From a virus (Duplodnaviria; Caudoviricetes): a stretch of 56,483 nt of DNA. The translations under genes and the position numbers were made by a program. Where the stretch lies: IMG/VR virus record IMGVR_UViG_3300031227_000050, positions 1-56,483 of that record; one strand, 5' to 3'. Shown one piece after another: positions 2,995 to 43,710 of this stretch (its first letter is position 1; the number at the start of each line of letters is the position of its first letter). The notes under the pieces were generated by a model. The model saw nothing but the letters and a program-made list of their open reading frames with translations, did no database searches and was not told the origin of the DNA.

Positions 2995-4195
2995 TTTTAT
3001 ATTGTTCTATTAGTGGTATAAGTAACATTTGTAAGTCGTCTATCGAGGTTGCCCCAACATCATTGTCACCAAGGTCAGGGGTTAAAATATTATATTGGTT
3101 CTTGCAACTCTCTGCGATTGTTGTCCTTGCTACTATACCGGCCTCGTCGGGGTCTGTCAACAAAATAATCGTAAAAGCGCCAGAAGCGTCCAATAAAGTT
3201 TTCTGGCCAGGGGATAATTTTGTACCGAAGGTGGCTATCGAATTATGAATACCGGCATCTTCTAGTCTCAACACATCCTTTGGACCCTCAACTAAGATAA
3301 CTATACCACATTTTTTAATGTGTGTATGAGCCTCCCACAAGTTGTATAACCAATATTCACTTTTAAAATCTGCTGAGTTGCGCCACTTAGCATATTGTGG
3401 TGCATACTCTGGTGATGGACAATCAGTCTCGGGGTTATGCCAAAGTTTACATTCTGGACATCTATCCCAAATGCTTCTACCTATACACCCCACCATAAAC
3501 CTACCGTTCTCTTCATATACTGGGAACACTATACGTTCTGACATTGGCTTATTAGGTGTAGTACATAATCCCACGTCATATTTATCTAATGTTGCAGAAG
3601 AAAATCCCAACTCTAAGAATGGTTTAGCTGGAATCTCTAGTTTATTGCGAATTTGTGCTCTACTAACGGTATAGGCGGCCTTGGGACGCTGACTTGTAAA
3701 GATATGTGCTTGGGATATAAACCTATCTGTGTTAATACTGGCGGAATTTACTAGTAAATTATCATAATTTACATTCAGAAACTTCATACACCAATTGATT
3801 GTGTCCATAAAGCCACATACTTTGTCTCCCTTTTGTACCCATTCATACTCTACCTTAGATAATAATCCCCTCACGAAACCAAGGGCCGAGGGTTGAAATA
3901 TTACTTCACATGCTCTTGTGTTACAGCACCAGTTACCCCTGTGTGTATGGCCCGAGTGATAAAAATTGAGCGCATCAACATTATCTCCATCGTGTATAGG
4001 ACATCTACCTATGTACATCTTAGATGTTTGGCGCATATCTAGGTTAAAATAATGGACCACCTTGTCAAAATTGTCACTAATAGATTGTGATAGTAGGTTT
4101 AACTTGGCCTGTGTCCATTGTTTATTGGAATGGGATATCATTGCCTTCATTGTCCTGAGTAGTGGGGAATCCTGTCTTTTCCTTAGCCTGTTCAA
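2984..4195 (-). CDS. dnaG: DNA primase
   Basis: CPIHDGDN zinc finger, RIVFPV, Toprim LVEGPKDV and DPDEAG; true start probably near 4141-4150. Confidence 0.92.
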   Translation of the reverse strand: MNRLRKRQDSPLLRTMKAMISHSNKQWTQAKLNLLSQSISDNFDKVVHYFNLDMRQTSKMYIGRCPIHDGDNVDALNFYHSGHTHRGNWCCNTRACEVIFQPSALGFVRGLLSKVEYEWVQKGDKVCGFMDTINWCMKFLNVNYDNLLVNSASINTDRFISQAHIFTSQRPKAAYTVSRAQIRNKLEIPAKPFLELGFSSATLDKYDVGLCTTPNKPMSERIVFPVYEENGRFMVGCIGRSIWDRCPECKLWHNPETDCPSPEYAPQYAKWRNSADFKSEYWLYNLWEAHTHIKKCGIVILVEGPKDVLRLEDAGIHNSIATFGTKLSPGQKTLLDASGAFTIILLTDPDEAGIVARTTIAESCKNQYNILTPDLGDNDVGATSIDDLQMLLIPLIEQYKIEI

Positions 4196-5594
4196 TCATC
4201 CACACAACCTTACGCTGCCCCTCAGTAATCTTAGCACATTCACCAACCATATGACAATTGATATAGTCTCCACTTTGAAAATCTGCACCGTGACGAGACA
4301 CCACTGGCACCAACTTACGATTACCAGCGTCCTGACCATCTTCTGCTATTTCTTCGTCTGACTTACGTTTGAAAATAGTAAAGTTGGAACATAACCAAAT
4401 GATTCTATCAGACCCACTGGCCGTATCAGTAGACTCTTTATTGATACCATCTCTGTTAGTTTGCATAAAGGTAAGAAATGGTAGTTGATAGCGCATAGCA
4501 AAGTTATGAAGCGAAGTCATCAAAAAGCCCAATAATTGATACTCTTTCATATCGTTACTAATACCCTCTTGAGTCATTAACTTTAAATAGTCATATACTA
4601 TTACACACGGCTTAGCCTTACCGTCATCGTCAAGTCCCACATTTTTGACCAACCAGCGCCTCATAATAGCTACTTGTTCCTCAAATGGCATACCAGCTAT
4701 GGATAAGTGGTAATATGGTACTTTTTCCTGCTCTATTTTTTTAGCTGCACTTAATACTTTTTCTTTTGTGTCTGGTTTTAAAGCATATTGTCCAGTTTCA
4801 ATGTCGTAGATGTAGCAATCTGTTATCATAGCCAGGGTACGATGCTGGTGGTCCTCTTTACGCATTTCAGTATCCATGTTGAACACTGGAATTCCAGTAG
4901 TATCAGCTATATAATAGCCCATGTTGTCTGAGAGTAATGTTTTCCCCGTTTTGGGCCTAGCTGCAATCACATTAACCGTACCGGGGCGCAAACCCCCACC
5001 TATAGCACTGTCGTATTCTGGGAACCCAGTAGCAATACCAATACTGTCAACTGGATTTTCTCCAAGATAAGTAATATACTCAAGCAGACCATCTCCCAAA
5101 AGAGTTGGTTCGTTATCTTGAGAGTCGTGCAACAACGATGTAAAGTCGAATATAGCATCTTCTGCAATTCCTAATATATGAGTTACTGTTTCATCACCAC
5201 TTAGATTGGTTAGCTTGCCCTTGGCGTCGTCGAGCTGAGTACCTAGTAGTCTGGCGATTTCTAATTTACGAATCTTAGCTGCAAACCTTCTAACATTCTT
5301 TTGAGATACCGGAAAATTAAAGATGGCTTGTAGGTGTTGGGCTTGTTGTCTTGTTTCAAATAGGTGTCCAATGCCCAGTTCAATAGCAGCGGATTGAATG
5401 ATTGGAACATCTATTGTAGCCCCATCATTCTGTTCAAGAACATGGTGTACACAATCATATATAGCCTGATTTTCTGCTATAGTAAACGTAGTAGAAGACA
5501 AAATGTCAACTACATCTAAGTATGAGTCTGAACCATAACGACAAATGCCGGCTAGTACAGCTCTTTCAGCGGGTGCATCTGATAGTACCTTCAT
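4122..5594 (-). CDS. dnaB: replicative DNA helicase
   Basis: AERAVLAG, IATGF..YD..IGGGL, AARPKTGKT, VYDYLKL, QTNRDG. Confidence 0.95.
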   Translation of the reverse strand: MKVLSDAPAERAVLAGICRYGSDSYLDVVDILSSTTFTIAENQAIYDCVHHVLEQNDGATIDVPIIQSAAIELGIGHLFETRQQAQHLQAIFNFPVSQKNVRRFAAKIRKLEIARLLGTQLDDAKGKLTNLSGDETVTHILGIAEDAIFDFTSLLHDSQDNEPTLLGDGLLEYITYLGENPVDSIGIATGFPEYDSAIGGGLRPGTVNVIAARPKTGKTLLSDNMGYYIADTTGIPVFNMDTEMRKEDHQHRTLAMITDCYIYDIETGQYALKPDTKEKVLSAAKKIEQEKVPYYHLSIAGMPFEEQVAIMRRWLVKNVGLDDDGKAKPCVIVYDYLKLMTQEGISNDMKEYQLLGFLMTSLHNFAMRYQLPFLTFMQTNRDGINKESTDTASGSDRIIWLCSNFTIFKRKSDEEIAEDGQDAGNRKLVPVVSRHGADFQSGDYINCHMVGECAKITEGQRKVVWMIEQAKEKTGFPTTQDNEGNDIPFQ

Positions 5595-11811: not shown

Positions 11812-14800
11812 TTATACTAAAATACAGGCCCCTCCAGCACAGGCAATTTCTTGCTCTGGCTGAGTTTCGTCTTGTTCTTCAATCATGGTTGTATAATCTA
11901 CAGGTTTAATACTATCTACTAGGTCGCAATATAACTTCCAATTGTATACATCTTTCATACAATATGTTAGTCTTTTTAGGTCACCATCAAAATACTTAAT
12001 GGCAAACTTGTTCATTTTCTCCACCATAGCACACTGTTTGGCAATTTTCATCCAAAAGGCAGAGTCTCCACCTCCATTAGTACTAATCTTAGTATTGAGC
12101 TTATCATATAGTGTAATATCACATGCTTTCCATAGGTTATCACAGGCATCTAACGCTATTTCTATCAAACCGGAGGTCCATAAGGCAGCATCTCCATATT
12201 CTCTTACAATCTCTCTTGCTGTATACACCGCAGTAAATGGAGCTTGGGCATAATCTTTGTCGCCACTCTGAGGCAATAAGGCAACACCACAAAAATACCG
12301 TTTGTTTTTGTAGATAAAATCAGCTACTTCGACCCATTCAGTTGGGGTAACAGTGATAGTATTTGATACATTATGACTGAGCCACGATTGTGTACATAGT
12401 TTTTTGTTTTTACCGGAATTAACCCAGTTACCCTGTGTGCTTTTAACAATGTCTAGTAATGCCAAGGCGGGCATTTGGTTCTTAGTTTTGGCACCATCAG
12501 GTACTTCAATAGGAAAGATGATAATATCATCAGTATCGTTAGCCGACCATACTGAACGAGTGCAGGCTTGTTGGTTGGTAGCTCTAAAATGTTGGTAAGG
12601 ATTCTCAGCTCTATTAGCTTGTAAAATACGTAAGTATCTTTTTGAATGGTGGGGGTGTAAGCTGGATGATGTACCTAATAGACACGATGATGTGCCCTCT
12701 GGTTTCATACAAGTAGTACGGGCAGCTTGATTAACTCCAATTATCTTAGCAAATGCTTTATTAGTATCAACTATGGTTTTAGCAACCGTACGTTGATTAG
12801 TAGGATTAAGTACTATGTCAAAATTTTCCATAGCTCCGGTCATAGATACGCCGAGTAGAGCTTCCCGCTGGAATATTGCTTGGGACCAGGATGTGAGGTA
12901 CTCAAGCCTGGTAAATCCTGCTTGGAGAGTACCGATAATAGCTGCCGCTCTACCTCTCTCATTAAAGTCTGCGATATCCTTGATAGTTGCGCAATTGATG
13001 GTCGAAAGGTTACATCCCTGCCATCCAGATTCAAGACCCATTTCGGTTGGTAGCGCTTTATATCCCATTCCATCATATGTCTCCATATACTTGTCATATT
13101 TCGCTTGGTCAACAATGTAATATGCCCACATGCCAATTTCAGCACATGGATTTATCAACATTTCTAAATCGTCGGTCCAAATGAAACCGGGCTCACCATG
13201 TTCTTTAACATGTTCTAATATAGCTAAGAATTCTTCCTTGGTTGTCTTGTTACGTAATAACATAACAGAATTATTTGAGCGTGCTCGCTGCCCATTTTCT
13301 TCTTTCCAGTTGCCCGTTTTGGCAGTCATCATCTCATGGTCGTCGGCCGAAAACAAACATATTGTGGATGAATTATGAACTAATATTCCATTACATAAAA
13401 AACAGCTTTCTTGTTCTACCTCGATATCATACGTGTCAATAGCATTATTTTGCTCAATGCTTAAAACACGAATAGGAACTATGTGTTGATTATGATAATA
13501 TTTATCGGCTACCCAACCAGTCATTCTTTTGTTATTTGTAGACCAAGAATGTCTCAGCCCTTTTGGATACGGCTTAGAAAACCATTTAGCCGGAAAACAA
13601 TTTGATGTTTTTTTATCGTGGGTTATTCTAGGTATTTTAGTTGCAAATCTATATTTAGATACAAACTCGATATACTGTTGTAGGTCTAGTTTGTTTAGAA
13701 TACTCACATGGTATTGGTCTTTCCAATTTGGTTTACCTTGATTACATTTCCATGTAGATACAGCTTTTAATTGTATCCTACTGATAATACCACAGCTTAA
13801 TAATAAAGATTGTAATTGTTTAGCAAAGTCTTCATAAATAGTACATGTTACACAGAAGGGTTTAACTTTTACCGAACCATCTGCATCTACTACACCTTGA
13901 ATATATGCCATTCTTATGTTTACAGAAGCCTTTTTAACAAAATCTGGTATATTAATAGGTGTATTAGGTTGTTTGATATGTGTATGAAAGTAGGTAGCTA
14001 ATTGCTTACTTTTTACTCTAACCCTATAATAATGGTCTTCGTGTGGTCTGTGTTGAACGGTTACATTTACACCAAATCTTGTCAATTGTTGGGCTACATC
14101 AACTGCTTGTTGTTTGTGTTCCTCAGCAACAGCTACAGACAAAGCCCCACTGTTATGGGTTAACTTAACATAGCCATCTCCATGAAATATTCCTAAAAAC
14201 CATGCCATTTTTTCATCTAATGGTGGTATAACAATATTTTTACATGTAGTTGAACGGGCTGGTTTTATATACTTAAAACTTGGTAGTCGTGTTGTGTTAT
14301 TGTGGTTATCAGCACGACGAATACTATATAGGTAATCGTCATCTGTTAAGTTTTTAGCATATTTCCAAGTAAATTGACCATCATAACTGTTTAACACAGC
14401 TACTCTATGATTTGGGGTACATTTTATAGTTCCATTTTGATGTTTTATTGTAACACAATTTTGTTTACCTTGACTAAAAGTGTTAATTACCCTTTTCCAT
14501 CCATTAGGTGTTGATACATAATCTCCAATGGTTACATCTTGTATATCTTTATATCCTTGTTCTTTGATTAAAACCTTTTCATCTTGTGCTATACATCTCC
14601 TAACACCACCACTTAAAACTGCATCGGATATATGCATAACAATATCATAGCAGTCTATAGGGCGTAATCTTTTTCTACCTTCTTGGTAACGACAACGTCT
14701 TAATAGAGCATCAATACGTATAATAGCACTTCTTAACCCGTTTGGCCCCGGCGCTTTGCCAACACCTGAACTTAGAAAAGAACCAGCAGGTCTAATTTGA

Positions 14801-15345
14801 GAATAATCAAAAACAACTTCGCCACATTTAGCATATTTTTCGTAAGCAGGGTCTATAACTACATCTAGGTGATTACTTAATAACACCCCAATGGTGTCAG
14901 CCCAACCCTCAATGGTATCGGGAACAACAAATGTTTCCTGATGAGAGAGAATTTCGCGCCTAAAACCAGGGAGTCTATCTACGTGTTGTTTTTGTACTGA
15001 AAATCCAGTCCCACAACCACATAATAATAACCAAAAACATTCTTGGAAAAATCGTGGTCTATCACAATAGGAACTCACACAATTATATATTCTAGCGTTC
15101 TTTTTTAGTGCTGGTGTGCCCCCAAATTGTAATGCTCTCTGTGACCCTAACACTTTCTTCTTGAGCATCATGTCGTATGCCCAGTTTATCTCTTCATCTA
15201 TACCTTTATCGTTGTAAAATTCCAACATCATATCGCGCACTCGATATACTGCTTCTTTCCAAGTCTCTCTGCGCTTCTCTTTGGCAATCCATCTGGCATA
15301 TTTAGATACAAGAGTATAATTCATTAATTCTGGTAAAGCTGACAC
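11812..15345 (-). CDS. nrdJ: class II (AdoCbl-dependent, monomeric RTPR-type) ribonucleotide reductase with intein
   Basis: RRETW, IYNC, GCGTGFSV, GGVRR|S, GEPG, NPCAEI, TCMKPEGT, C-terminal ACAGGAC. Confidence 0.93.
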   Translation of the reverse strand: MSALPELMNYTLVSKYARWIAKEKRRETWKEAVYRVRDMMLEFYNDKGIDEEINWAYDMMLKKKVLGSQRALQFGGTPALKKNARIYNCVSSYCDRPRFFQECFWLLLCGCGTGFSVQKQHVDRLPGFRREILSHQETFVVPDTIEGWADTIGVLLSNHLDVVIDPAYEKYAKCGEVVFDYSQIRPAGSFLSSGVGKAPGPNGLRSAIIRIDALLRRCRYQEGRKRLRPIDCYDIVMHISDAVLSGGVRRCIAQDEKVLIKEQGYKDIQDVTIGDYVSTPNGWKRVINTFSQGKQNCVTIKHQNGTIKCTPNHRVAVLNSYDGQFTWKYAKNLTDDDYLYSIRRADNHNNTTRLPSFKYIKPARSTTCKNIVIPPLDEKMAWFLGIFHGDGYVKLTHNSGALSVAVAEEHKQQAVDVAQQLTRFGVNVTVQHRPHEDHYYRVRVKSKQLATYFHTHIKQPNTPINIPDFVKKASVNIRMAYIQGVVDADGSVKVKPFCVTCTIYEDFAKQLQSLLLSCGIISRIQLKAVSTWKCNQGKPNWKDQYHVSILNKLDLQQYIEFVSKYRFATKIPRITHDKKTSNCFPAKWFSKPYPKGLRHSWSTNNKRMTGWVADKYYHNQHIVPIRVLSIEQNNAIDTYDIEVEQESCFLCNGILVHNSSTICLFSADDHEMMTAKTGNWKEENGQRARSNNSVMLLRNKTTKEEFLAILEHVKEHGEPGFIWTDDLEMLINPCAEIGMWAYYIVDQAKYDKYMETYDGMGYKALPTEMGLESGWQGCNLSTINCATIKDIADFNERGRAAAIIGTLQAGFTRLEYLTSWSQAIFQREALLGVSMTGAMENFDIVLNPTNQRTVAKTIVDTNKAFAKIIGVNQAARTTCMKPEGTSSCLLGTSSSLHPHHSKRYLRILQANRAENPYQHFRATNQQACTRSVWSANDTDDIIIFPIEVPDGAKTKNQMPALALLDIVKSTQGNWVNSGKNKKLCTQSWLSHNVSNTITVTPTEWVEVADFIYKNKRYFCGVALLPQSGDKDYAQAPFTAVYTAREIVREYGDAALWTSGLIEIALDACDNLWKACDITLYDKLNTKISTNGGGDSAFWMKIAKQCAMVEKMNKFAIKYFDGDLKRLTYCMKDVYNWKLYCDLVDSIKPVDYTTMIEEQDETQPEQEIACAGGACILV
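13372..14595 (-). mobile_element. 408-aa intein with LAGLIDADG homing endonuclease in nrdJ
   Basis: GGVRR|CIAQD...CTPNHR...FLGIFHGDG...YIQGVVDADG...TYDIEV..ILVHN|SS. Confidence 0.95.
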
Positions 15346-21214: not shown

Positions 21215-21642
21215 TAGCGATTACCCCTTTTTTGTAAGTGTTTTTGTAATGTTATGTCAATAGTATGTGTTACATCCTTGGGTTGAAAGAGTTTACCAAT
21301 ACCAATTCTCATGCGGTATGGAGTATAAACATCAAACGTTTCTACACCTAGGGTGTCAGCTATTAACTTTACAATTTTGTCAGATATCTTAAAGTTAGTG
21401 TGTCCAATCCATAAATTAAAGACCTTACCAGGACTATTACGATTTAAGATAGGAAATGCACCCATTGGGGTAATAATTACCCTACCCTCTTCTTCTGTTT
21501 CATCTTCGTCGTCGTCTCTGTTTGTTTCTATTAAATCATAATCTGCTTTGTCCCAATGGTCATCTTGGGTATCTTCATCAGCCTTTTTGTTCCATGGGTC
21601 TTTCCATTTCTCCCATAATATAACATGTTTGGTATTTTTCAT
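21214..21642 (-). CDS. hypothetical protein
   Basis: coupled ORF, WIGHTNF motif. Confidence 0.65.
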   Translation of the reverse strand: MKNTKHVILWEKWKDPWNKKADEDTQDDHWDKADYDLIETNRDDDEDETEEEGRVIITPMGAFPILNRNSPGKVFNLWIGHTNFKISDKIVKLIADTLGVETFDVYTPYRMRIGIGKLFQPKDVTHTIDITLQKHLQKRGNR

Positions 21643-22628
21643 ACTGCTACATCTCCGAAGTCTATTTTGGAATACGGATTATAATTAAGTAGTTCAACAT
21701 CCTTGTGTGTCCACTTAAAAATGTCTGGTTGTGTAATTTTAACTTGAGGAAGGTGGCGAGGGATTCTTTCTAGTTGTTTGTGTGCTGTTGAAATTTGATT
21801 CTCGTAAATATGGCAGTCACATAGCATACCAGACAAATTACCCGGTTGAAGTTCGCTGCCAGCGGCCAAGAGGCACAAAAGTAAACCATAACTAGCTATG
21901 TTAAATGGCACCCCTAGCATTAAATCACATGAACGCTGCGTCCAATGTAGGTTGATTACACCATCAATGACTGTGATAACAAAACATAAATGGCATGGTG
22001 GTAACGCTTGTAAATGTTGTTGATTTGGATTCCACGCTGAACATACCATGCGTCTATCATTAGGATTTGTCTTTAATGTATCAACAATGTATTTGAGTTG
22101 GTCAAAACCGCCTGTTTGATAATCATACATCTTTGGAGGAACACCATTTAATTCTGCGTATGCATTTTCTTCGTATTCATTCAGCGGGCCATAATGTTCA
22201 CCAAATTTACGCCACTGATAACCATAGATTGGTCCAAGGTCGGTTGTTGCTCTTTGTAATTGTTTTCTAACACTGTCTTTAGATTCATGAGGACTTGGCG
22301 AGCCACCCATAATATCGCAATCCCACTGTGCTGTGGGATTAGCCCACTCGTTCCATATCTTACATCCTCGTTCCTGATACCATTTCTTATCAGTGATACC
22401 ATTAATAAATCCTTCAAGCTCTACACACATAGTCTTAAATGCAACACGCTTGGTAGTCAATAGCGGAAAGTTGTAACATATTGTAGCGTTGTCTTGAGAT
22501 TGGGCAGTTTGTCCTAAGTTATGTGAAAAATGCATGTTGGGTAAAGCAATAGTATCAATACCTGTTCTATTTTTTTTCATTCTCCCATGTACTAGTACAT
22601 CGTCTACAATGTCTAAATATGCGTTCAT
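21639..22628 (-). CDS. thyA: thymidylate synthase
   Basis: RTGIDT, FPLLTTK, LGPIYGYQWR, LPPCH, QRSCDLMLGVPFNIASY, HIYENQ. Confidence 0.97.
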   Translation of the reverse strand: MNAYLDIVDDVLVHGRMKKNRTGIDTIALPNMHFSHNLGQTAQSQDNATICYNFPLLTTKRVAFKTMCVELEGFINGITDKKWYQERGCKIWNEWANPTAQWDCDIMGGSPSPHESKDSVRKQLQRATTDLGPIYGYQWRKFGEHYGPLNEYEENAYAELNGVPPKMYDYQTGGFDQLKYIVDTLKTNPNDRRMVCSAWNPNQQHLQALPPCHLCFVITVIDGVINLHWTQRSCDLMLGVPFNIASYGLLLCLLAAGSELQPGNLSGMLCDCHIYENQISTAHKQLERIPRHLPQVKITQPDIFKWTHKDVELLNYNPYSKIDFGDVAV

Positions 22629-29470: not shown

Positions 29471-30114
29471 TACGGAATTGCCGGTTGCTCAATAGCTAGA
29501 CATACTTCGCCATTTTGTGCTATTAGTTTATCCATATCACTATTAGTAATATAAGCCCGTCCCTGTCTACCCCAATCTCTTCCCCAACTGTTCTTCATAC
29601 GAAAGCGCTTATACTTTGATGAATAGCCAGTAAGAAGGTATGCATGTCCACCATATACTTGACCACTTACTCTTAAATAACCTTTCTTATCTGGTACCAT
29701 CATACCTTCATACCAATTAGTTCCTACTACTACCGGCCCTTCTTCTAAAAGTGTAGCTGCTAAAGTATTAACATCCCAACACCAATTATAGGCGCGGATT
29801 AAACCAATACGTTGAAGGATTTTAGCACCAGCTCTAACACTAGTACCTTGTTCACCATCATCTTCCCACTCATCTACCATTGTAGCTAACGAATATAGCC
29901 CATCTGGATTTACGAAATTTAGTATAGGACTATTAATAAGCCAATGTGCCCACGCATAACCTACACAATGAGGTGTTTGACCTTGGTTACCCCACCATCT
30001 AGTGTCTCGCCAGTATCTCTCAGTTCTCTTAGATGTACCACGTCTTAGACGAAATTTTATATCTCTTTTATCTTCGGCAAATCTTCTACCGAACTTGAAT
30101 TTATCTGTGTTCAT
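29470..30114 (-). CDS. papain-family (C1) cysteine peptidase
   Basis: NQGQTPHCVG, GGHAY, KNSWGRDWG. Confidence 0.88.
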   Translation of the reverse strand: MNTDKFKFGRRFAEDKRDIKFRLRRGTSKRTERYWRDTRWWGNQGQTPHCVGYAWAHWLINSPILNFVNPDGLYSLATMVDEWEDDGEQGTSVRAGAKILQRIGLIRAYNWCWDVNTLAATLLEEGPVVVGTNWYEGMMVPDKKGYLRVSGQVYGGHAYLLTGYSSKYKRFRMKNSWGRDWGRQGRAYITNSDMDKLIAQNGEVCLAIEQPAIP

Positions 30115-31202
30115 TCGAATATCCTATTGTGAGTTCTGTTTACACGAACAAAGGAGGCACAGTCTCCTAAGTATCTTAAATCAGTTGCTCCAACATAGGC
30201 GCAACAACTGCGCAGTCCTCCTACGATTTCCTTTAGTATATCTGCAACTGGTCCTTTGTATGGCACTGATACTTTTTTACCTTCAGATGCAGTGTAATCC
30301 TTACGACCATTATGTTTGTCTTGGGCTGAGTAGGAAGACATACCATAGAAACTTAATGCCTTTTTGCCTCCCCGTCTTTCTTCTCTAATACTAATACCAA
30401 GCGTAGGATGTGTAGTACGTTCCCATTTGACATCATATTCCCATTCTCCATCACACTCGTCTGTCCCCGTCAGCATTCCGCCCACCATAACAAAGTCTGC
30501 GCCCGCCGCAAACGCTTTGCAAATATCTCCGGGGGTTCGACAGCCACCATCTGCACAGATTAAACCAAGGCGTCCCTCGTCGCTCTTGCGGCCATGTGCG
30601 GCGTCGGCACACTCCATGATTGCGGAAAGCTGAGGATAGCCCACACCGGCCACCAGTCTCGTAGTACACACACTCCCGCCACCAACTCCAATCTTAACTA
30701 TATCAGCACCATGGTCGATTAACCGTTCGACCATATTAGGGGTACATACATTGCCGGCTATAATAGTAAGCTCTTTACCATGTTTTTCGCGCATCTTAGA
30801 TACCAACTCAAGAAACTGATTTGTGTATCCATTAGCAACATCTAAACACACATATTTTGGAGGCATGTTATGGTTCATGGCATCCATACCGAAGCTTTCT
30901 ATATTATATCCGTCTTGTTGGTCTGTTAATGATTGTCCCATTTTATCAAGCACAGAATAATGTTTGTGTAATACGCAACCCATTTGATGGTCGCGCATCA
31001 CCTTGGCCATAGCAAACGTACCAGTAGTATCCATATTAGCCGCCAAGATAGGGACACCTTTCCATACATTAGACGAATGATAAAACTTAAACTCTCTAAC
31101 AAGGTTTACTGCTTTCCTACTAGCATTGATGCTACTCTTTGGTACAATAAGAACATCATCGAAGTCTAGTTTGACCCCATCTAAGATTTGTGCTTGTCCC
31201 AT
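30111..31202 (-). CDS. guaC: GMP reductase
   Basis: LDFDDVLI, AANMDT, LDVANGY, KIGVGGGSVCTTR, FYGMSS, ASEGK. Confidence 0.93.
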   Translation of the reverse strand: MGQAQILDGVKLDFDDVLIVPKSSINASRKAVNLVREFKFYHSSNVWKGVPILAANMDTTGTFAMAKVMRDHQMGCVLHKHYSVLDKMGQSLTDQQDGYNIESFGMDAMNHNMPPKYVCLDVANGYTNQFLELVSKMREKHGKELTIIAGNVCTPNMVERLIDHGADIVKIGVGGGSVCTTRLVAGVGYPQLSAIMECADAAHGRKSDEGRLGLICADGGCRTPGDICKAFAAGADFVMVGGMLTGTDECDGEWEYDVKWERTTHPTLGISIREERRGGKKALSFYGMSSYSAQDKHNGRKDYTASEGKKVSVPYKGPVADILKEIVGGLRSCCAYVGATDLRYLGDCASFVRVNRTHNRIFE

Positions 31203-32398
31203 TACTTGCCGTCCGTCCCGCCCTTTCGGGCCAAATAATCTGCGCTTACACTCTTCAAGATAACCCGTCCCAATATAGGAACAGTACGGTCTATAACTGG
31301 TTTGATTACTACTCCTTCGCGCCCTTTAAACTTACTCTTGGGATTTTCACATACCTCAGTAAGCCCATCGGTAAGCTCCCTAACTATCTCAGGAGAGTAG
31401 GTACCTATATATAGCTCTGGTACATGAGGAATACTATATTGATGACAAAGTTCTCTTACGTTTTGCCACATGATAAACTTACCACCAATGGTGATGTCAA
31501 ATACAGAAAAAGCTTTTGGCCCATCGTACTGCATATCCTGAATATCTTCTCCGTAAATCTCCCCATAGATAACTATAGGCTTCTGGTATAAGGTAAATAA
31601 GTCAGCCAACATCTTTTTGACTGGTGGATACTTCATGGGTGACCAATACAGACACTCATTACCATTAGTATCCTCTTGCTTACGGCGAGTATTATGAGAG
31701 CCCGCCATGAAAGTTGGTACCATCTCTCCATTCTCATCTGCATCTAGAGCAATGCCCAATCTACAGTTTGTATTGTGTACTATTATTCCTGACGCTACAA
31801 AATTATGGGTATCTTTAATTTGTAGGTCATATCTTTTATAAGACTGAACTAATTTTTTCTTCTTAATAAGTTTCATTTTTGTAACTTCTTTTTGTAAAAG
31901 GTCTTTAATATATCCTCTATAAATAGGTTTTAAATTATGTTGTTCAATTACTTCTTTGGTTAAATTTAAATGAACCCGTTGACCTACCTTTTGCTTGTTT
32001 TGCAATGTCAGATAACCTAATTTTCTATCTTTAACTATATGTAAAAGAATATAATCAGGCTCGGTTATTATATGCATTTCATATATTGGTTCTAGAACAT
32101 CAAAATTATATCTTGCAAATATCAATGGTTGTTTTGGATAATGAGGATAATTTGGACTAATAGTAGAACTATCTTTATCTATCATAGTGGTACTTTTAAC
32201 CTCAGCTTTCAATATTTTATTTGCTATAGATATATATACATCTCCTCCTTTACCATCTTTTTTTCTATGTCCATTAAATGCTAAAGCCACCAAACCTTCT
32301 GATATTTTTTCTGGCAAATTTGGTTTACGCTCATTTATATCAAAACATTTTCTATATGCTATATAAGCATTACACATTTCTCGTATTAATATAGGCAT
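31202..32398 (-). CDS. fusion: Bsp6I-like restriction endonuclease (aa 1-174) + C-intein (35 aa) + RNA ligase C-terminal half (189 aa)
   Basis: RKPNLPEKISE...GD...AEVKST; MKLIKK..RYDLQIKDTHNFVASGIIVHN|T; IYGEIYG, FSVFDI, REGVVIKP, RVILKSVSADYL. Confidence 0.88.
   Translation of the reverse strand: MPILIREMCNAYIAYRKCFDINERKPNLPEKISEGLVALAFNGHRKKDGKGGDVYISIANKILKAEVKSTTMIDKDSSTISPNYPHYPKQPLIFARYNFDVLEPIYEMHIITEPDYILLHIVKDRKLGYLTLQNKQKVGQRVHLNLTKEVIEQHNLKPIYRGYIKDLLQKEVTKMKLIKKKKLVQSYKRYDLQIKDTHNFVASGIIVHNTNCRLGIALDADENGEMVPTFMAGSHNTRRKQEDTNGNECLYWSPMKYPPVKKMLADLFTLYQKPIVIYGEIYGEDIQDMQYDGPKAFSVFDITIGGKFIMWQNVRELCHQYSIPHVPELYIGTYSPEIVRELTDGLTEVCENPKSKFKGREGVVIKPVIDRTVPILGRVILKSVSADYLARKGGTDGK
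31772..31876 (-). mobile_element. split intein C-half (IntC)
   Basis: block F/G YDLQI..THNF..SGIIVHN followed by Thr nucleophile; own Met at 31876. Confidence 0.9.
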
Positions 32399-33321
32399 TT
32401 AAGTATTCTATTGACTAATACTGGACATACAGAATTACCTGCTTGTTTATAAATTTGTCCATTGGCTACTGAATATTTGAATGTGCTTGGAAACCCCTGT
32501 AATAGTAAACATTCTTGTGGGGTTAATTTTCGTATCCCAAACCTATCCTTAATTAGAGGTACATTATGTCCACCAGTACCCATATTAGCAGTTAATGTAG
32601 GACATAAACCATTTTGATTTCTTCGTACATAAATTCTTCTAAGTTGATAAATGGCATCGTCAATAACATTGTCTTTTAACATATCATAGTACTGCGAATC
32701 AGTTTTATAATAATATCTACTTTCTTGTTTTATGTTTCTTTGTAGTATACTAGATATTTTAGAGGTTAATACTATTGGTAGCGGGAATTGAAACGTTGTT
32801 GTTTTACCATGAATACCAACAAAAAACATACGCTTTCTACATTGTGGAATATTAGTATGTGTATCTAAATCTACGACATCAGTAAAAACAGAATATCCTA
32901 CTTGTTCTAAGGCTGATATAATATTAGTATAGTCCTGACCTCCATTAGTATTCTTAATATTGGCAACATTTTCAAAAATGAAATATTTGGGTTGATGATA
33001 TTTTAAAATTTCAATCAAATAATTAATTAGAATACCTCTACTATCCTTAGACCCCAATTTATTACCAGCTAAGCTAAATGATTGACATGGAAACCCGCCA
33101 GTTAATAAATTGTGTGCTGGCAATGCTCTTATATTTACCTTGGTTATGTCACCAAACATTGGTATATCTAGAAAATTTTCTTGGTAAGTTTGACAAGCAT
33201 ATTTATCATATTCTATAGCACCAACACATTTAAAATCCATATCAAGTTCACCACATGCTTGTTTAACACCAAGATGAAATCCACCAATTCCAGCAAACGC
33301 ATCTAACAATTTAATTTTCAT
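32386..33321 (-). CDS. C5-cytosine DNA methyltransferase, M.Bsp6I-like (predicted GCNGC)
   Basis: FAGIGG, GGFPCQ, ENV, QCRKR, RKLTPQEC, YKQAGNSV; TRD IYQLRRIYVR...CPTLTANMGTGGHNVP resembles M.Bsp6I as recalled. Confidence 0.9.
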   Translation of the reverse strand: MKIKLLDAFAGIGGFHLGVKQACGELDMDFKCVGAIEYDKYACQTYQENFLDIPMFGDITKVNIRALPAHNLLTGGFPCQSFSLAGNKLGSKDSRGILINYLIEILKYHQPKYFIFENVANIKNTNGGQDYTNIISALEQVGYSVFTDVVDLDTHTNIPQCRKRMFFVGIHGKTTTFQFPLPIVLTSKISSILQRNIKQESRYYYKTDSQYYDMLKDNVIDDAIYQLRRIYVRRNQNGLCPTLTANMGTGGHNVPLIKDRFGIRKLTPQECLLLQGFPSTFKYSVANGQIYKQAGNSVCPVLVNRILKCLY

Positions 33322-34076
33322 TTTCTATCTCCATCAGTCCACTTAATTTTAGTTACATCATATTCTTTATTTGATTTATGTTGCTTAGCAACTAAGTTAC
33401 ACCAAAAAATCAGCTCATCATTATCTAATACCGATTTAATTCTATTAAGTCTTTTATGAATAATTTGTATATTACCTTCCTTATAGCCCTCACTATTATC
33501 TATCCTATCTAATGAAGCCGTTTGTATACTTTTATCTTGATTTCTACAAAAAAATACATCAACACCAGATAAAGCACATTTTTTATTTTGCCTTAACCAC
33601 AACTCATAAACATCTTTGGCTATTATATCAAACTGTAAACCTCTTTCTTCTGCGTGATATTTTAGTCTACGAAACCATGAACCTGATACATCTTCATATC
33701 CCTTAAAGTTTACAATAGAACAATAGCCACAAGATTTTGTTAAACCACGCTTTAGTGATGAGGCATTAATCATTTTAGTTCTACCGCACGCACATTTACA
33801 ACTCCACCTACGCTTGCCATGAGCATCTGGGCTAACCACATGTTTAACTGTAAGTTTTCCAAACGTTCGATTAGATAGGTCATCATCAGGATTATTAACC
33901 AATCTAGCTTTATACCTAGCATCTTTCACATCTTCATATATATCATATTTTTTACAATATTTTATGATAGTTTGCTTGCTATACTTAACCTCTTCAGATA
34001 ACTTAGCCAAAGACTTAAGATTTGCTATTAATTCTTGAACTAACAACTCTTCTGTTAATACATCTTTACATTTCAT
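33318..34076 (-). CDS. free-standing HNH/His-Me homing endonuclease
   Basis: FGKLTV...WSCKCACG...KSCG; KCALSG...ASLDRIDNSEGYKEGNIQ...NRIK. Confidence 0.85.
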   Translation of the reverse strand: MKCKDVLTEELLVQELIANLKSLAKLSEEVKYSKQTIIKYCKKYDIYEDVKDARYKARLVNNPDDDLSNRTFGKLTVKHVVSPDAHGKRRWSCKCACGRTKMINASSLKRGLTKSCGYCSIVNFKGYEDVSGSWFRRLKYHAEERGLQFDIIAKDVYELWLRQNKKCALSGVDVFFCRNQDKSIQTASLDRIDNSEGYKEGNIQIIHKRLNRIKSVLDNDELIFWCNLVAKQHKSNKEYDVTKIKWTDGDRK

Positions 34077-34115
34077 GAGAACATCCTTTGTGTAAAATAC
34101 TGAAAACTCAGTATA

Positions 34116-34415
34116 TTATACACTAGATTCTCCCAAAACGATATGATTTTCTGTTAAATCTCGGGCTTTTATCCAGCCATCGGTAGTCAATACCGGATGG
34201 TCTTCGGTACAAACCAATGTCTGCCCATTATCAAACTCAAGTTCAAACCAATCTAATTGGTCGGTTTCATCCTGAACTAACACTCCCTCAACATCTGAGT
34301 GTGTAAATAACCCCTTGTCTACATCATATGTTTTAACTTTTTCTCCAACCACAATATCTTTGATGGGTTTTTGTGTACCATCAGACATAGTTACTAAAGA
34401 GTCTTCACGAAGACA
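34116..34415 (-). mobile_element. split intein N-half (IntN)
   Basis: CLREDSLVTMSDG..KPIKDI.VGEKV...LVCTEDHPVLT..GWIKARDL, then stop. Confidence 0.92.
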
Positions 34416-34946
34416 CCCATGAATCTTCTCAGTTATTACTACTTCTTCATCCTCTAACCACACATCAGGATAATTACCCCAATGTTCTATAGAAGTATAC
34501 TTAGGAAACTGAGGATTGTCTTTCATCACATCACCCTGGGTAGACTTAACGGGTGGTTCCCATTTGGTGATACCTAATGCATCTATTACATCAGCACTAT
34601 CTATTTTAGTATTACCATTATTCGAAGTATATTCTAAGAACGATTTCATCGTCATTATTGTTCCATATGATACTTCACCTCTCAGCCTAGCTGCTTTTAC
34701 TCTCCGAGCATTTGTGTTAAATGACTTAGGTAACTCTGCACAATACTTAGTAATGTTCAGGTACTCATGTAATAGTGCAGGAAGAATAGCATCTGGTGGG
34801 ATGAACACAACTAAGTCTCCGGGACTCAATAGGTCTTTCTGTACTATAACAGACCATCCTTTGACCGTAGCTATTTCTAGCCGGTCTGCATTGGGGTGGG
34901 GCTGAATATCCTTAACGGATGTTATTTCAACGATTAGCTTTGACAT
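34116..34946 (-). CDS. RNA ligase (DRB0094 family) N-terminal half (177 aa) + N-intein (99 aa)
   Basis: PHPNADRLEIA, GDLVVFIPPDA, RLRGEVSYG, LGITKWEPP, FPKYT, ITEKIHG|CL. Confidence 0.92.
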   Translation of the reverse strand: MSKLIVEITSVKDIQPHPNADRLEIATVKGWSVIVQKDLLSPGDLVVFIPPDAILPALLHEYLNITKYCAELPKSFNTNARRVKAARLRGEVSYGTIMTMKSFLEYTSNNGNTKIDSADVIDALGITKWEPPVKSTQGDVMKDNPQFPKYTSIEHWGNYPDVWLEDEEVVITEKIHGCLREDSLVTMSDGTQKPIKDIVVGEKVKTYDVDKGLFTHSDVEGVLVQDETDQLDWFELEFDNGQTLVCTEDHPVLTTDGWIKARDLTENHIVLGESSV

Positions 34947-42660: not shown

Positions 42661-43710
42661 TTAACCCTCCGGTTTGAGTAACTTCCATATCATCTTGGCA
42701 TAGTCATGCTCATCCATCATAGCAAACACAATATGTCTATAACGATAGTCTTTAATAAGATTGGCTACATACTTACGAGTCCAACTTGGGTCTATAGTAA
42801 CCTCATTGAGTTTATTCCACACTTCGGTCTCGATAACACGATATTTCTTTCTAAGTCCACTCTGAACACTAAGTATCCATTCAAAGTATTCATCGGGTAC
42901 ATTCTTAGGGTCTATTTCATAACTGTCACGCTCCCACTCCCAGAGTTTCTTTTCAGTTATGCTAGTCATAATATAATGAAGCCGCTTGTATTCCTCATAC
43001 TTGAACTTCAATCGGAAACCGTCCTCAAAGATAAGAACATAACCCTCGGCGTTGTCTCTATCGGGAGCCGCCTCTAATTCCTCAATAGTATTAATGTGAT
43101 ACAGCTTAGCAAACTTCATATATTTATTCATCAAAGACCACTCATCCCAATCATCTAAACCAGTATCATTATTCAGAACAGCTAAAAGAATTAATGCACG
43201 CTCATTTTTATAATTTACCACAATTCTATTTTCTGGGTAAATTATTTCAACCATATAGGTACAATCTATTGCAAAGGTTAACCAGTTATATTTTTCTTGC
43301 AATATTTTATTGGCTTCAATAGCCTGGTCTGATTCAAATGAACCCCTAGTGGCAATTTCCCACTTAGTTAGCAAAGGATTGTAGAAAAGTATCCCCAACG
43401 AACCATCTATCTTTTCCATGGTGATGAAGCGTTCATTAAAAATGTCTTTGAACTTACGACCATACAGGTGATGAACCTTATTTCTTATGGAAGTTAGTTG
43501 GTCAATAGTGAAGAACTTCTTAAGTGGTCTTGCTATGATGTTCCACTCGGCATCAACTATGAGCCCACGACACACAATAGTAGCTTCGTTCCACTCAAAA
43601 TCAAACTGGGTTTGTGGAGTGTAGTTTAATATCCACAAGTCACAGGTTGGATGCTTGCGGCGAGAAACATAACCTTTCTCAATCATCTTTTTAATTAATG
43701 GAATGTTCAT
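42661..43710 (-). CDS. T4 Rnl1-like RNA ligase
   Basis: ILNYT, CRGLI, RPLKKFF, EKIDGSLG, ATRGSF, EIIYPENRIVV, EGYV, RLKFKYEEY. Confidence 0.92.
   Translation of the reverse strand: MNIPLIKKMIEKGYVSRRKHPTCDLWILNYTPQTQFDFEWNEATIVCRGLIVDAEWNIIARPLKKFFTIDQLTSIRNKVHHLYGRKFKDIFNERFITMEKIDGSLGILFYNPLLTKWEIATRGSFESDQAIEANKILQEKYNWLTFAIDCTYMVEIIYPENRIVVNYKNERALILLAVLNNDTGLDDWDEWSLMNKYMKFAKLYHINTIEELEAAPDRDNAEGYVLIFEDGFRLKFKYEEYKRLHYIMTSITEKKLWEWERDSYEIDPKNVPDEYFEWILSVQSGLRKKYRVIETEVWNKLNEVTIDPSWTRKYVANLIKDYRYRHIVFAMMDEHDYAKMIWKLLKPEG

Follow-up and report, generated by a model that had tools for sequence, protein, structure and literature searches.

A stop-less restriction nuclease gene fused in frame to the C-terminal half of a split intein in a fractured phage RNA ligase gene

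We analysed a 56.5-kb virus record (IMGVR_UViG_3300031227_000050, positions 1 to 56,483; the whole stretch is called the window hereafter), of which the estimated completeness is 39% and the DNA is found in salt-lake metagenome runs, with no RNA run among those listed. All the long open reading frames (ORFs) of the window lie on the minus strand. The window carries an RNA ligase gene fractured by a split intein, in which the C-terminal intein half (IntC) is preceded, with no stop codon in between, by a 174-codon domain of the Bsp6I family of type II restriction endonucleases. The explanation that we favour on balance is that a restriction-modification cassette is nested in the fractured ligase gene and that, its nuclease gene having no stop, the C-terminal half of the ligase would be made as a nuclease fusion. 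The locus consists of the following features.

34416..34946, minus strand: RNA ligase N-extein, residues 1-177, with an OB domain and motif I, ending in EKIHG (PF21189, E 6.1e-16; TIGR02306 positions 5-171, E 1.2e-37)
34116..34415, minus strand: N-terminal intein half (IntN), 99 aa (C178 to V276) and a stop, starting with CLREDS and containing a TEDH (TxxH) block (TIGR01445 intein_Nterm, residues 178-254, E 3.3e-7; Hint PF01079, E 3.9e-12)
33318..34076, minus strand: free-standing HNH-type endonuclease, 252 aa (PHROG 3322, E 1.7e-19; also PHROG 374 and 1035)
32386..33321, minus strand: C5 DNA cytosine methyltransferase, 311 aa (PF00145, E 5.6e-71; TIGR00675, E 1.6e-74)
31877..32398, minus strand: Bsp6I-family PD-(D/E)xK restriction endonuclease domain, 174 codons, stop-less (family-profile match, residues 7-165)
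31772..31876, minus strand: IntC, 35 aa (M175 to H208 and N209), MKLIKKKKLVQSYKRYDLQIKDTHNFVASGIIVHN (TIGR01443 intein_Cterm, residues 190-210, E 5.3e-7)
31202..31771, minus strand: RNA ligase C-extein, 189 aa from T210, and a stop (PF09414, E 3.9e-17; TIGR02306 positions 199-341)
31202..30111, minus strand: IMPDH/GMP-reductase-like gene, downstream of the fusion ORF by gene order

The uninterrupted frame and the fractured RNA ligase gene

A 398-codon ORF runs uninterrupted on the minus strand from ATG 32398 to 31202 and encodes the 174-aa nuclease domain, the 35-aa IntC and, from T210, the ligase C-half. Residues 1-174 end with ...DLLQKEVTK and are directly followed by MKLIKKKK... at ATG 31876, and IntC ends with ...GIIVHN before T210. 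An earlier reading of the bare sequence (the original prediction) had claimed that no stop separates the 174-aa domain from IntC, and both its coordinates and its frame proved to be correct. The frame contains no stops within the nuclease part (522 nt), versus 20 and 24 in the two other sense frames, and it stayed open in none of 5000 dinucleotide-preserving shuffles of this part (mean of 17 stops). Therefore, the open nuclease frame is not a product of chance.

The fusion was found in all five members of the 90% protein cluster to which the window protein belongs. Three of them are 398 aa long, one was called from M8 (391 aa), and one is a contig-end fragment that spans the junction; one member sits on a 141-kb contig. 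In addition, contigs from all the four other runs (X3-X6) crossed the junction at 31877 with no differences. The fusion is thus not an assembly slip, and the absence of a stop is confirmed. It is true that the record is a metagenome assembly and that a single contig of low depth shows a 1-nt difference at 32122. However, the junction is identical in the other runs and the cluster members come from several sources, and we regard it as extremely improbable that a true stop or frameshift before IntC was lost through an assembly or sequencing artefact.

The junction coincides with a natural nuclease C-terminus, as the end of a small protein of the same family (P0007, ...LKKIVEKI) aligns to ...LQKEVTK. 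The codon before the IntC ATG is AAA, one change away from TAA, and the upstream leader is A-rich. The stop at this place may have been lost by such a single AAA/TAA change.

The other parts of the locus show the anatomy of a gene fractured by a split intein. The ligase N-extein and IntN form a single 276-aa protein (34946..34116). By its profile matches, the host gene is assigned to the DRB0094/TIGR02306 type of RNA ligases, split right after motif I (EKIHG). In comparison with an intein-less homologue (P0008), to which the C-extein is 63% identical, the two exteins rejoin seamlessly (...ITEKIHGTSNRLG...). The splicing residues C178, TEDH, H208-N209 and T210 are all present by direct reading, with the TIGR01445 and TIGR01443 matches above their cut-offs, and the nearest solved relative of IntN is a DnaE intein (E 3.7e-4). 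The HNH gene begins 39 nt after the IntN stop; the ATG of the methyltransferase overlaps the HNH stop (ATGA), and the ATG of the nuclease lies 13 nt inside the methyltransferase gene. The GC content is 26-34% in the intein-plus-cargo stretch (~31800 to 34000) versus 38-43% in the flanks.

The HNH-type endonuclease had no Pfam match but is 60%, 59% and 36% identical to genes in the same slot of three related loci (L003, L045 and L031, respectively), and it is most plausibly the resident homing endonuclease of the split intein. The original prediction had placed the restriction nuclease at the site where inteins usually hold their homing endonuclease. This description fits the chain order (IntN, nuclease, IntC) but missed the HNH gene, which is the resident homing nuclease. 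The restriction nuclease is joined to one splicing half only, with the IntN stop at 34116-34118 and two whole genes between IntN and the nuclease.

Another RNA ligase, of the T4 Rnl1 type, is encoded in the window at 42661-43710 on the minus strand (PF09511, E 6.9e-14). Therefore, the fractured DRB0094-type ligase may not be the sole RNA ligase of the phage.

The nuclease domain and its partner methyltransferase

The 174-aa domain alone matched nothing in Pfam (E <= 10), PHROGs, PDB sequences, a word-indexed protein search, or tblastn and megablast searches against phage records. Scans for close relatives of the 398-aa protein and of the methyltransferase, and a scan of metagenomes for those of the nuclease domain, also returned nothing. 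An exhaustive HMMER search of 1.84 billion proteins found three small proteins (P0005-P0007; E 1.6e-5 to 5.9e-4), after two of its stronger matches, to short stretches of very long proteins (P0003 and P0004; 1993 and 4488 aa), had been left out as probable low-complexity matches. One of the three, P0007, matches the Pfam family RE_Bsp6I (PF09504) at 48.8 bits (cut-off 25). A profile search then yielded 34 proteins, all with PF09504, several of which are named Bsp6I-family type II restriction endonucleases by their source; the representative of the window protein's cluster (P0002) likewise carries a precomputed PF09504. A profile of 30 family members, built without the window sequence and without P0005-P0007, matched residues 7-165 of the nuclease with 63 bits (E 1.4e-21, Z=1). 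These matches assign the domain to the Bsp6I family of type II restriction nucleases as a divergent member, in line with the Bsp6I-like nature originally proposed for the N-terminal 174 aa. A Pfam Intein_splicing match starting from residue 138 was rejected as an over-extension, given that the nuclease profile extends to residue 165.

The putative catalytic set of the family (E34, D53, E66 and K68) is kept in the window nuclease, and E34, D53 and K68 are invariant in all the 34 aligned sequences. Two family motifs are altered: SFSP is replaced by TISP and RPRxS by RVHLN. The exchanges seen here (S>T, F>I, R>H, S>N) are of a conservative kind, which counts against decay. The ratio of nuclease to methyltransferase divergence is ordinary as well, being 0.12-0.24 in five pairs involving the window versus 0.11-0.76 in ten other pairs (six pairs involving L040 were left out because its methyltransferase had been wrongly extracted), and gives no signal of decay.

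An AF2 model computed with the family alignment was confident for the nuclease domain (pLDDT 83); a single-sequence AF2 model of the 398-aa protein was not (pLDDT 31). The folds closest to the model were those of NhoI (Z 8.1; 129 residues aligned, rmsd 5.2), PvuII (Z 7.8; 125 aligned, rmsd 3.7) and Eco15I (Z 6.6), where Z of 7-8 is a grey zone, and nearly all of the top 20 fold matches were PD-(D/E)xK nucleases. A Foldseek search against PDB gave no match at E <= 0.001, and its weaker rows were again PD-(D/E)xK nucleases. Eco15I was also the top PDB match of the family profile, though not significantly so (E 0.21). The model thus appears to resemble the BisI family (NhoI and Eco15I; PDB 8q5n and 8q5m) and PvuII, which is the nearest canonical relative of the BisI family according to the available text of the structure paper (PMC11347163). 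Unlike the BisI enzymes, which that text describes as orphan enzymes requiring methylated GCNGC, the window nuclease stands beside a methyltransferase and shows no significant sequence link to them. Bsp6I has no occurrence in the available text of this 2024 paper (PMC11347163). A common origin of methylation-blocked and methylation-dependent GCNGC enzymes seems worth testing in view of the fold likeness and the Eco15I match. The change from RPR to RVH creates an R-V pair that looks like the methyl-sensing motif (H/R)(V/I/T/M) of NhoI as given in the same text (PMC11347163). In a bolder version of the quite unlikely reading of a recruited intein nuclease (see below), the response to a methylated inner cytosine could have been altered by it.

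The methyltransferase encoded just upstream shows 35-43% full-length identity to methyltransferases located beside Bsp6I-family nucleases in five loci (L038, L039, L041, L043 and L044; E 6e-54 to 1.4e-75), and 30% identity to the one in a sixth (L040; E 5e-38). Indeed, a similar C5-methyltransferase was found within 4 kb of the Bsp6I-family nuclease in six of seven other loci; the seventh (L042) ends early. In the viral locus L041, the methyltransferase precedes the nuclease on one strand, which is the same order as in the window. The nearest solved structure is M.HhaI (E 5.3e-39). By family and adjacency, the two window genes are assigned to a Bsp6I-type type II restriction-modification pair. 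The window nuclease thus resembles the Bsp6I system (PF09504) in its size of about 170 aa, its E...D...ExK core and its position beside a monospecific C5-methyltransferase. It differs from the family in having no stop of its own, in the changes of RPR to RVH and of F80 to I, and in giving no match to Pfam's own model.

The target of M.Bsp6I is GCNGC, as stated in the available text of PMC2790894, and the window nuclease may have the same specificity. GCNGC sites were said to be common in the window, and they are: there are 104 (including 175-179 and 223-227) versus 69.8 +/- 8.1 expected, and the window thus shows no avoidance of GCNGC. An active enzyme of this specificity would therefore need the neighbouring methyltransferase. 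A GCNGC-free gap at 31043-34690 was discarded as a signal, as only about one site is expected (by estimate) in 2.6 kb at 29% GC.

Three further observations concern these two gene families. In Moraxella sp. TY6 (L038), one of two Bsp6I-family nucleases (3779-4492, 237 aa) has an N-terminal helix-turn-helix extension, recognised by eye, and faces a divergently transcribed C5-methyltransferase; the combination of helix-turn-helix and PF09504 also appears in the precomputed Pfam lists of P0142, P0144 and P0145. Contigs of the runs X4, X5 and X6 match the window methyltransferase up to 33292 and then share the same AT-rich sequence unlike that of the window, which hints at a similar methyltransferase in another context within the same community. 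In one X5 contig, the match ends at 31844, eleven codons past the IntC start, and the sequence beyond is unlike that of the window.

Cargo of the intein slot in related loci

Our comparison covered 116 related loci, of which 36 are viral and 80 metagenomic. No intein motif was present at the expected place in 92 of them, most of which are taken as intein-less ligase genes. The remaining 24 comprised 12 split-type ligase loci (two of which, L120 and L121, look like duplicates), two loci with a frameshifted mini-intein (L004 and L005), three with a contiguous mini-intein (L079, L092 and L098), and seven with contiguous inteins in other host genes. In L004 and L005 (6015-7633), the ligase site holds a contiguous mini-intein whose frame is broken shortly after it begins (...DGSKKKIG...); as both contigs show the very same break, it represents either a real frameshift or a common assembly error.

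The original prediction had raised the question of a stop at homologous loci. All 12 split-type relatives have a stop codon in the IntC frame, 1-14 codons ahead of its Met, and none of them is fused; the fusion is present in every member of the window's own cluster. IntC begins at the same Met in all 12 relatives and has 35 aa in 11 of them, and the free-standing proteins P0009, P0010, P0012, P0014, P0017, P0022, P0057 and P0081 share both this Met and this length. Such free-standing IntC-ligase-C proteins are common, with 220-241 aa and a start at the same Met (MKL.KK...). The free-standing IntC starts of the 12 relatives suggest that the fusion is a junction without a stop and not a conserved regulatory design.

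The cargo of the slot varies among the relatives. It consists of an HNH gene only in L003 and L031, of a 341-aa ORF that looks Vsr-like by eye in L029, and of a 288-aa ORF that looks PD-(D/E)xK-like by eye in L002. L045, which is syntenic with the window (IMPDH-like gene downstream), holds an HNH gene and a 464-aa ORF. The latter ORF (3610-5004) has, by eye, about six Cys-rich repeats (...CxCG...SCGHC...) and a Vsr-like C-terminus, and overlaps the IntC start by 4 nt. The 3' end of the upstream gene overlaps the IntC start in L002, L003, L029, L031 and L045.

The relative L046 matches the window from 33819 to 33197 at 70% DNA identity. This match spans HNH sequence, the ATGA junction shared with the window and ~125 nt from the start of the methyltransferase gene. 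About 1.3 kb of the window are then missing from L046, and the match resumes at 31893..31761, 17 nt before IntC; the IntC of L046 has its own start behind a TAA. At 480-837, L046 encodes a 53-aa methyltransferase stump (motif I region, 73% identical over 41 aa), a 79-aa ORF, and then the free-standing IntC. The stump implies that the methyltransferase insertion predates the split of the two lineages and that the cassette can be lost. The 79-aa ORF was rejected as a nuclease remnant (BLASTP E 0.3; about 0 bits with the family profile in all three frames).

Expression of the fusion and comparison with known systems

Translation of the ligase C-half depends on the start that is used. No Shine-Dalgarno-like core of at least 3 nt is present within 20 nt upstream of ATG 31876; as originally proposed, IntC keeps its own Met there, and a weak AAGAAG is the only such element. 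The nuclease ATG 32398 also lacks a Shine-Dalgarno-like core. By contrast, by our reading, cores of at least 4 nt precede 40 of the 64 long ORFs of the window and 8 of the 12 IntC starts of the relatives. As neither start has a core that is common elsewhere, the ligase C-half in our view comes mainly from the 398-aa chain. The nuclease start, being without a Shine-Dalgarno motif and 13 nt inside the methyltransferase gene, is probably served by translational coupling.

These features suggest the following course of events. An RNA ligase gene would have been fractured by a split intein bearing a free-standing HNH homing endonuclease gene, and a second selfish unit, methyltransferase first and nuclease second, would have become nested between the HNH gene and IntC. 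Ribosomes starting at the nuclease would run on through IntC into the ligase C-half. The 398-aa product would pair with the ligase N-half carrying IntN, and trans-splicing, if it occurs as the splicing residues suggest, would yield a 366-aa ligase. The 209-aa nuclease-IntC chain would then stay bound to the 99-aa IntN. The main consequence would be genetic and not regulatory, as a nonsense or frameshift mutation that breaks the nuclease frame would at the same time deprive the phage of the ligase C-half. Such a dependence would keep the nuclease frame open whether or not the nuclease still cuts, which fits an open frame with drifted motifs.

IntC-ligase-C might instead be made mainly from ATG 31876, as in the relatives, with the fusion as a minor and roughly neutral by-product of a recent stop loss. 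The Met at the exact IntC start of 11 of the 12 relatives and of the eight free-standing proteins is consistent with this, as are the A-rich leader, the AAA codon one change from TAA, the two relatives that likewise have no Shine-Dalgarno motif, and the X3 contig with a frameshift upstream. However, M175 has no Shine-Dalgarno-like core in a window where such cores are frequent, and ribosomes in the nuclease frame have to terminate before they can initiate again at an internal ATG of that frame. In addition, a scan for promoter-like sites in the window was at chance level (19 found versus 20.7 expected), as was a scan for terminator-like sites. We consider this two-product arrangement rather unlikely.

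Several observations weigh against production of the ligase C-half as a nuclease fusion, or against a functional role of that fusion. First, the low-depth X3 contig has a 1-nt deletion at 32122 in the nuclease part (depth 2.3 of 7.5). This may stem from an error, or it may be a rare variant, in which case there is a form of the phage that does without read-through. Second, two relatives (L046 and L048) have no Shine-Dalgarno-like core at IntC and two more of the 12 have a 3-nt core only, and the ORF starts used in the window count are the longest possible ones and may be wrong. Third, the fusion is present in one lineage only, so that conservation is no argument for its function. Finally, of 31 columns conserved in at least 80% of 33 relatives, 15 differ in the window nuclease. 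Among the changed residues, F80, P142 and R143 are kept in all the 33 relatives and in seven of seven further bacterial or viral loci. With these three family-wide positions changed, the catalytic activity of the nuclease is uncertain on sequence grounds.

It is possible, if doubtful, that the nuclease no longer cuts, that the orphan methyltransferase acts in anti-restriction, and that the nuclease frame survives as a translated leader of IntC-ligase-C. The altered RPRxS and SFSP motifs, the retention of RPR and F80 in the seven further loci, a frame that is open despite the drifted motifs, and the reduction of the L046 cassette to a methyltransferase stump all agree with such a dead passenger. 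However, E34, D53, E66 and K68 are intact, the replacements are conservative, the divergence relative to the methyltransferase is ordinary, and the model obtained with the family alignment is confident. The nuclease may thus be active.

The original prediction, of which the family assignment and topology stand, had further suggested that splicing controls the nuclease by releasing it from the ligase half. As long as it is attached to IntC and the ligase C-half, the nuclease would be inactive; trans-splicing would activate it, and the methyltransferase would have a head start. The fusion itself is real, and the methyltransferase is encoded upstream. Moreover, H139 and V140 of NhoI (of about 155 residues), near its C-terminus, contact DNA according to the available text of PMC11347163, so that a C-terminal appendage on the window nuclease could matter. 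Against such gating, intein chemistry implies that after loss of the 189-aa C-extein the nuclease would still carry IntC and IntN (about 134 residues), one bulky appendage being swapped for another. The ligase N-half, the HNH gene, the methyltransferase and the fusion follow one another in the same direction, with little space between them or a slight overlap, and no timing difference is visible among these four genes. Finally, none of the 12 split relatives and none of the seven other Bsp6I-family loci has the fusion, which is thus not a conserved design. We regard gating by splicing as very unlikely; release of the nuclease by splicing is unsupported, since it would remain on IntC bound to IntN.

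The fusion could also be a selected state, in which an active type II restriction enzyme for GCNGC was recruited as the intein nuclease, is made only within the ligase precursor, and rides on the reassembled intein. This is quite unlikely in our view. If true, the frame, dose and timing of the nuclease would be locked to an essential-looking phage enzyme, the methyltransferase would shield the phage while host or rival phage DNA is exposed, and the locus would show a natural stage in the passage of a nuclease from a separate gene of its own to a domain embedded in an intein.

Returning to the nested cassette with a stop-less nuclease gene, the nearest known arrangement is that of fractured genes (Dassa et al. 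2009; PMC2677866). In the available text of that study, the gap between IntN and the endonuclease gene is 27-51 bases, and the upstream gene overlaps the IntC start in 15 loci. The window shares with these genes (PMC2677866) the N-extein with IntN, the short gap (39 nt), the endonuclease gene, IntC with the C-extein, the location on one strand and the origin from an environmental phage, and the five relatives with an overlapped IntC start show the same type of overlap (PMC2677866). Unlike the genes described in that text (PMC2677866), the window has an RNA ligase as its host gene (the term "RNA ligase" has no occurrence there), a resident endonuclease of the HNH type instead of the GIY-YIG or Vsr-like type, and a nested methyltransferase-nuclease pair (no occurrence of "methyl" there). 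In the window, the final cargo gene runs in frame into IntC, in place of an out-of-frame overlap. By its anatomy and splicing residues, the locus can be placed in the fractured-gene class, from which it differs in host gene, cargo and in-frame junction. A full-text search of a limited literature collection found no account of either a split intein with a restriction-modification pair between its halves or a fusion of IntC to a restriction enzyme.

As in classical bifunctional inteins, the insertion site of which is discussed in PMC6801210, the window nuclease lies between the N- and C-terminal splicing blocks in chain order, and once IntN and IntC have associated it would project from the HINT fold where the endonuclease is usually found. 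Unlike the nucleases of those inteins, it has a link on a single side, it belongs to the type II restriction enzymes, with a methyltransferase of its own, and not to the LAGLIDADG or HNH homing domains, and its intein is split. A classical intein is present elsewhere in the window, at 11812-15345 on the minus strand, in a 1177-aa class II ribonucleotide reductase-like protein with a LAGLIDADG domain (PF14528, E 2.5e-17; PF14890, E 3.1e-14). The phage thus has a contiguous as well as a split intein. At 21639-22628 on the minus strand, the window encodes a thymidylate synthase homologue (PF00303, E 4.1e-81), the 329 aa of which extend over a 266-position profile and thus hold about 60 extra residues.

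The locus widens the picture of fractured genes in three respects, as its host gene is an RNA ligase, its endonuclease slot carries a whole restriction-modification pair as nested cargo, and a nuclease is naturally joined in frame to the start of IntC. Should the fused protein splice, a folded domain of 174 residues is naturally tolerated where classical inteins hold their endonuclease, which would bear on the origin of bifunctional inteins and on the design of split-intein tools. The relatives provide snapshots of the gain, replacement and loss of cargo in one slot, with an HNH gene only in L003, an HNH gene and another ORF in L045, and a methyltransferase stump in L046. The window further suggests a way in which a selfish gene can safeguard its reading frame, namely by serving as the translated leader for part of a host gene.

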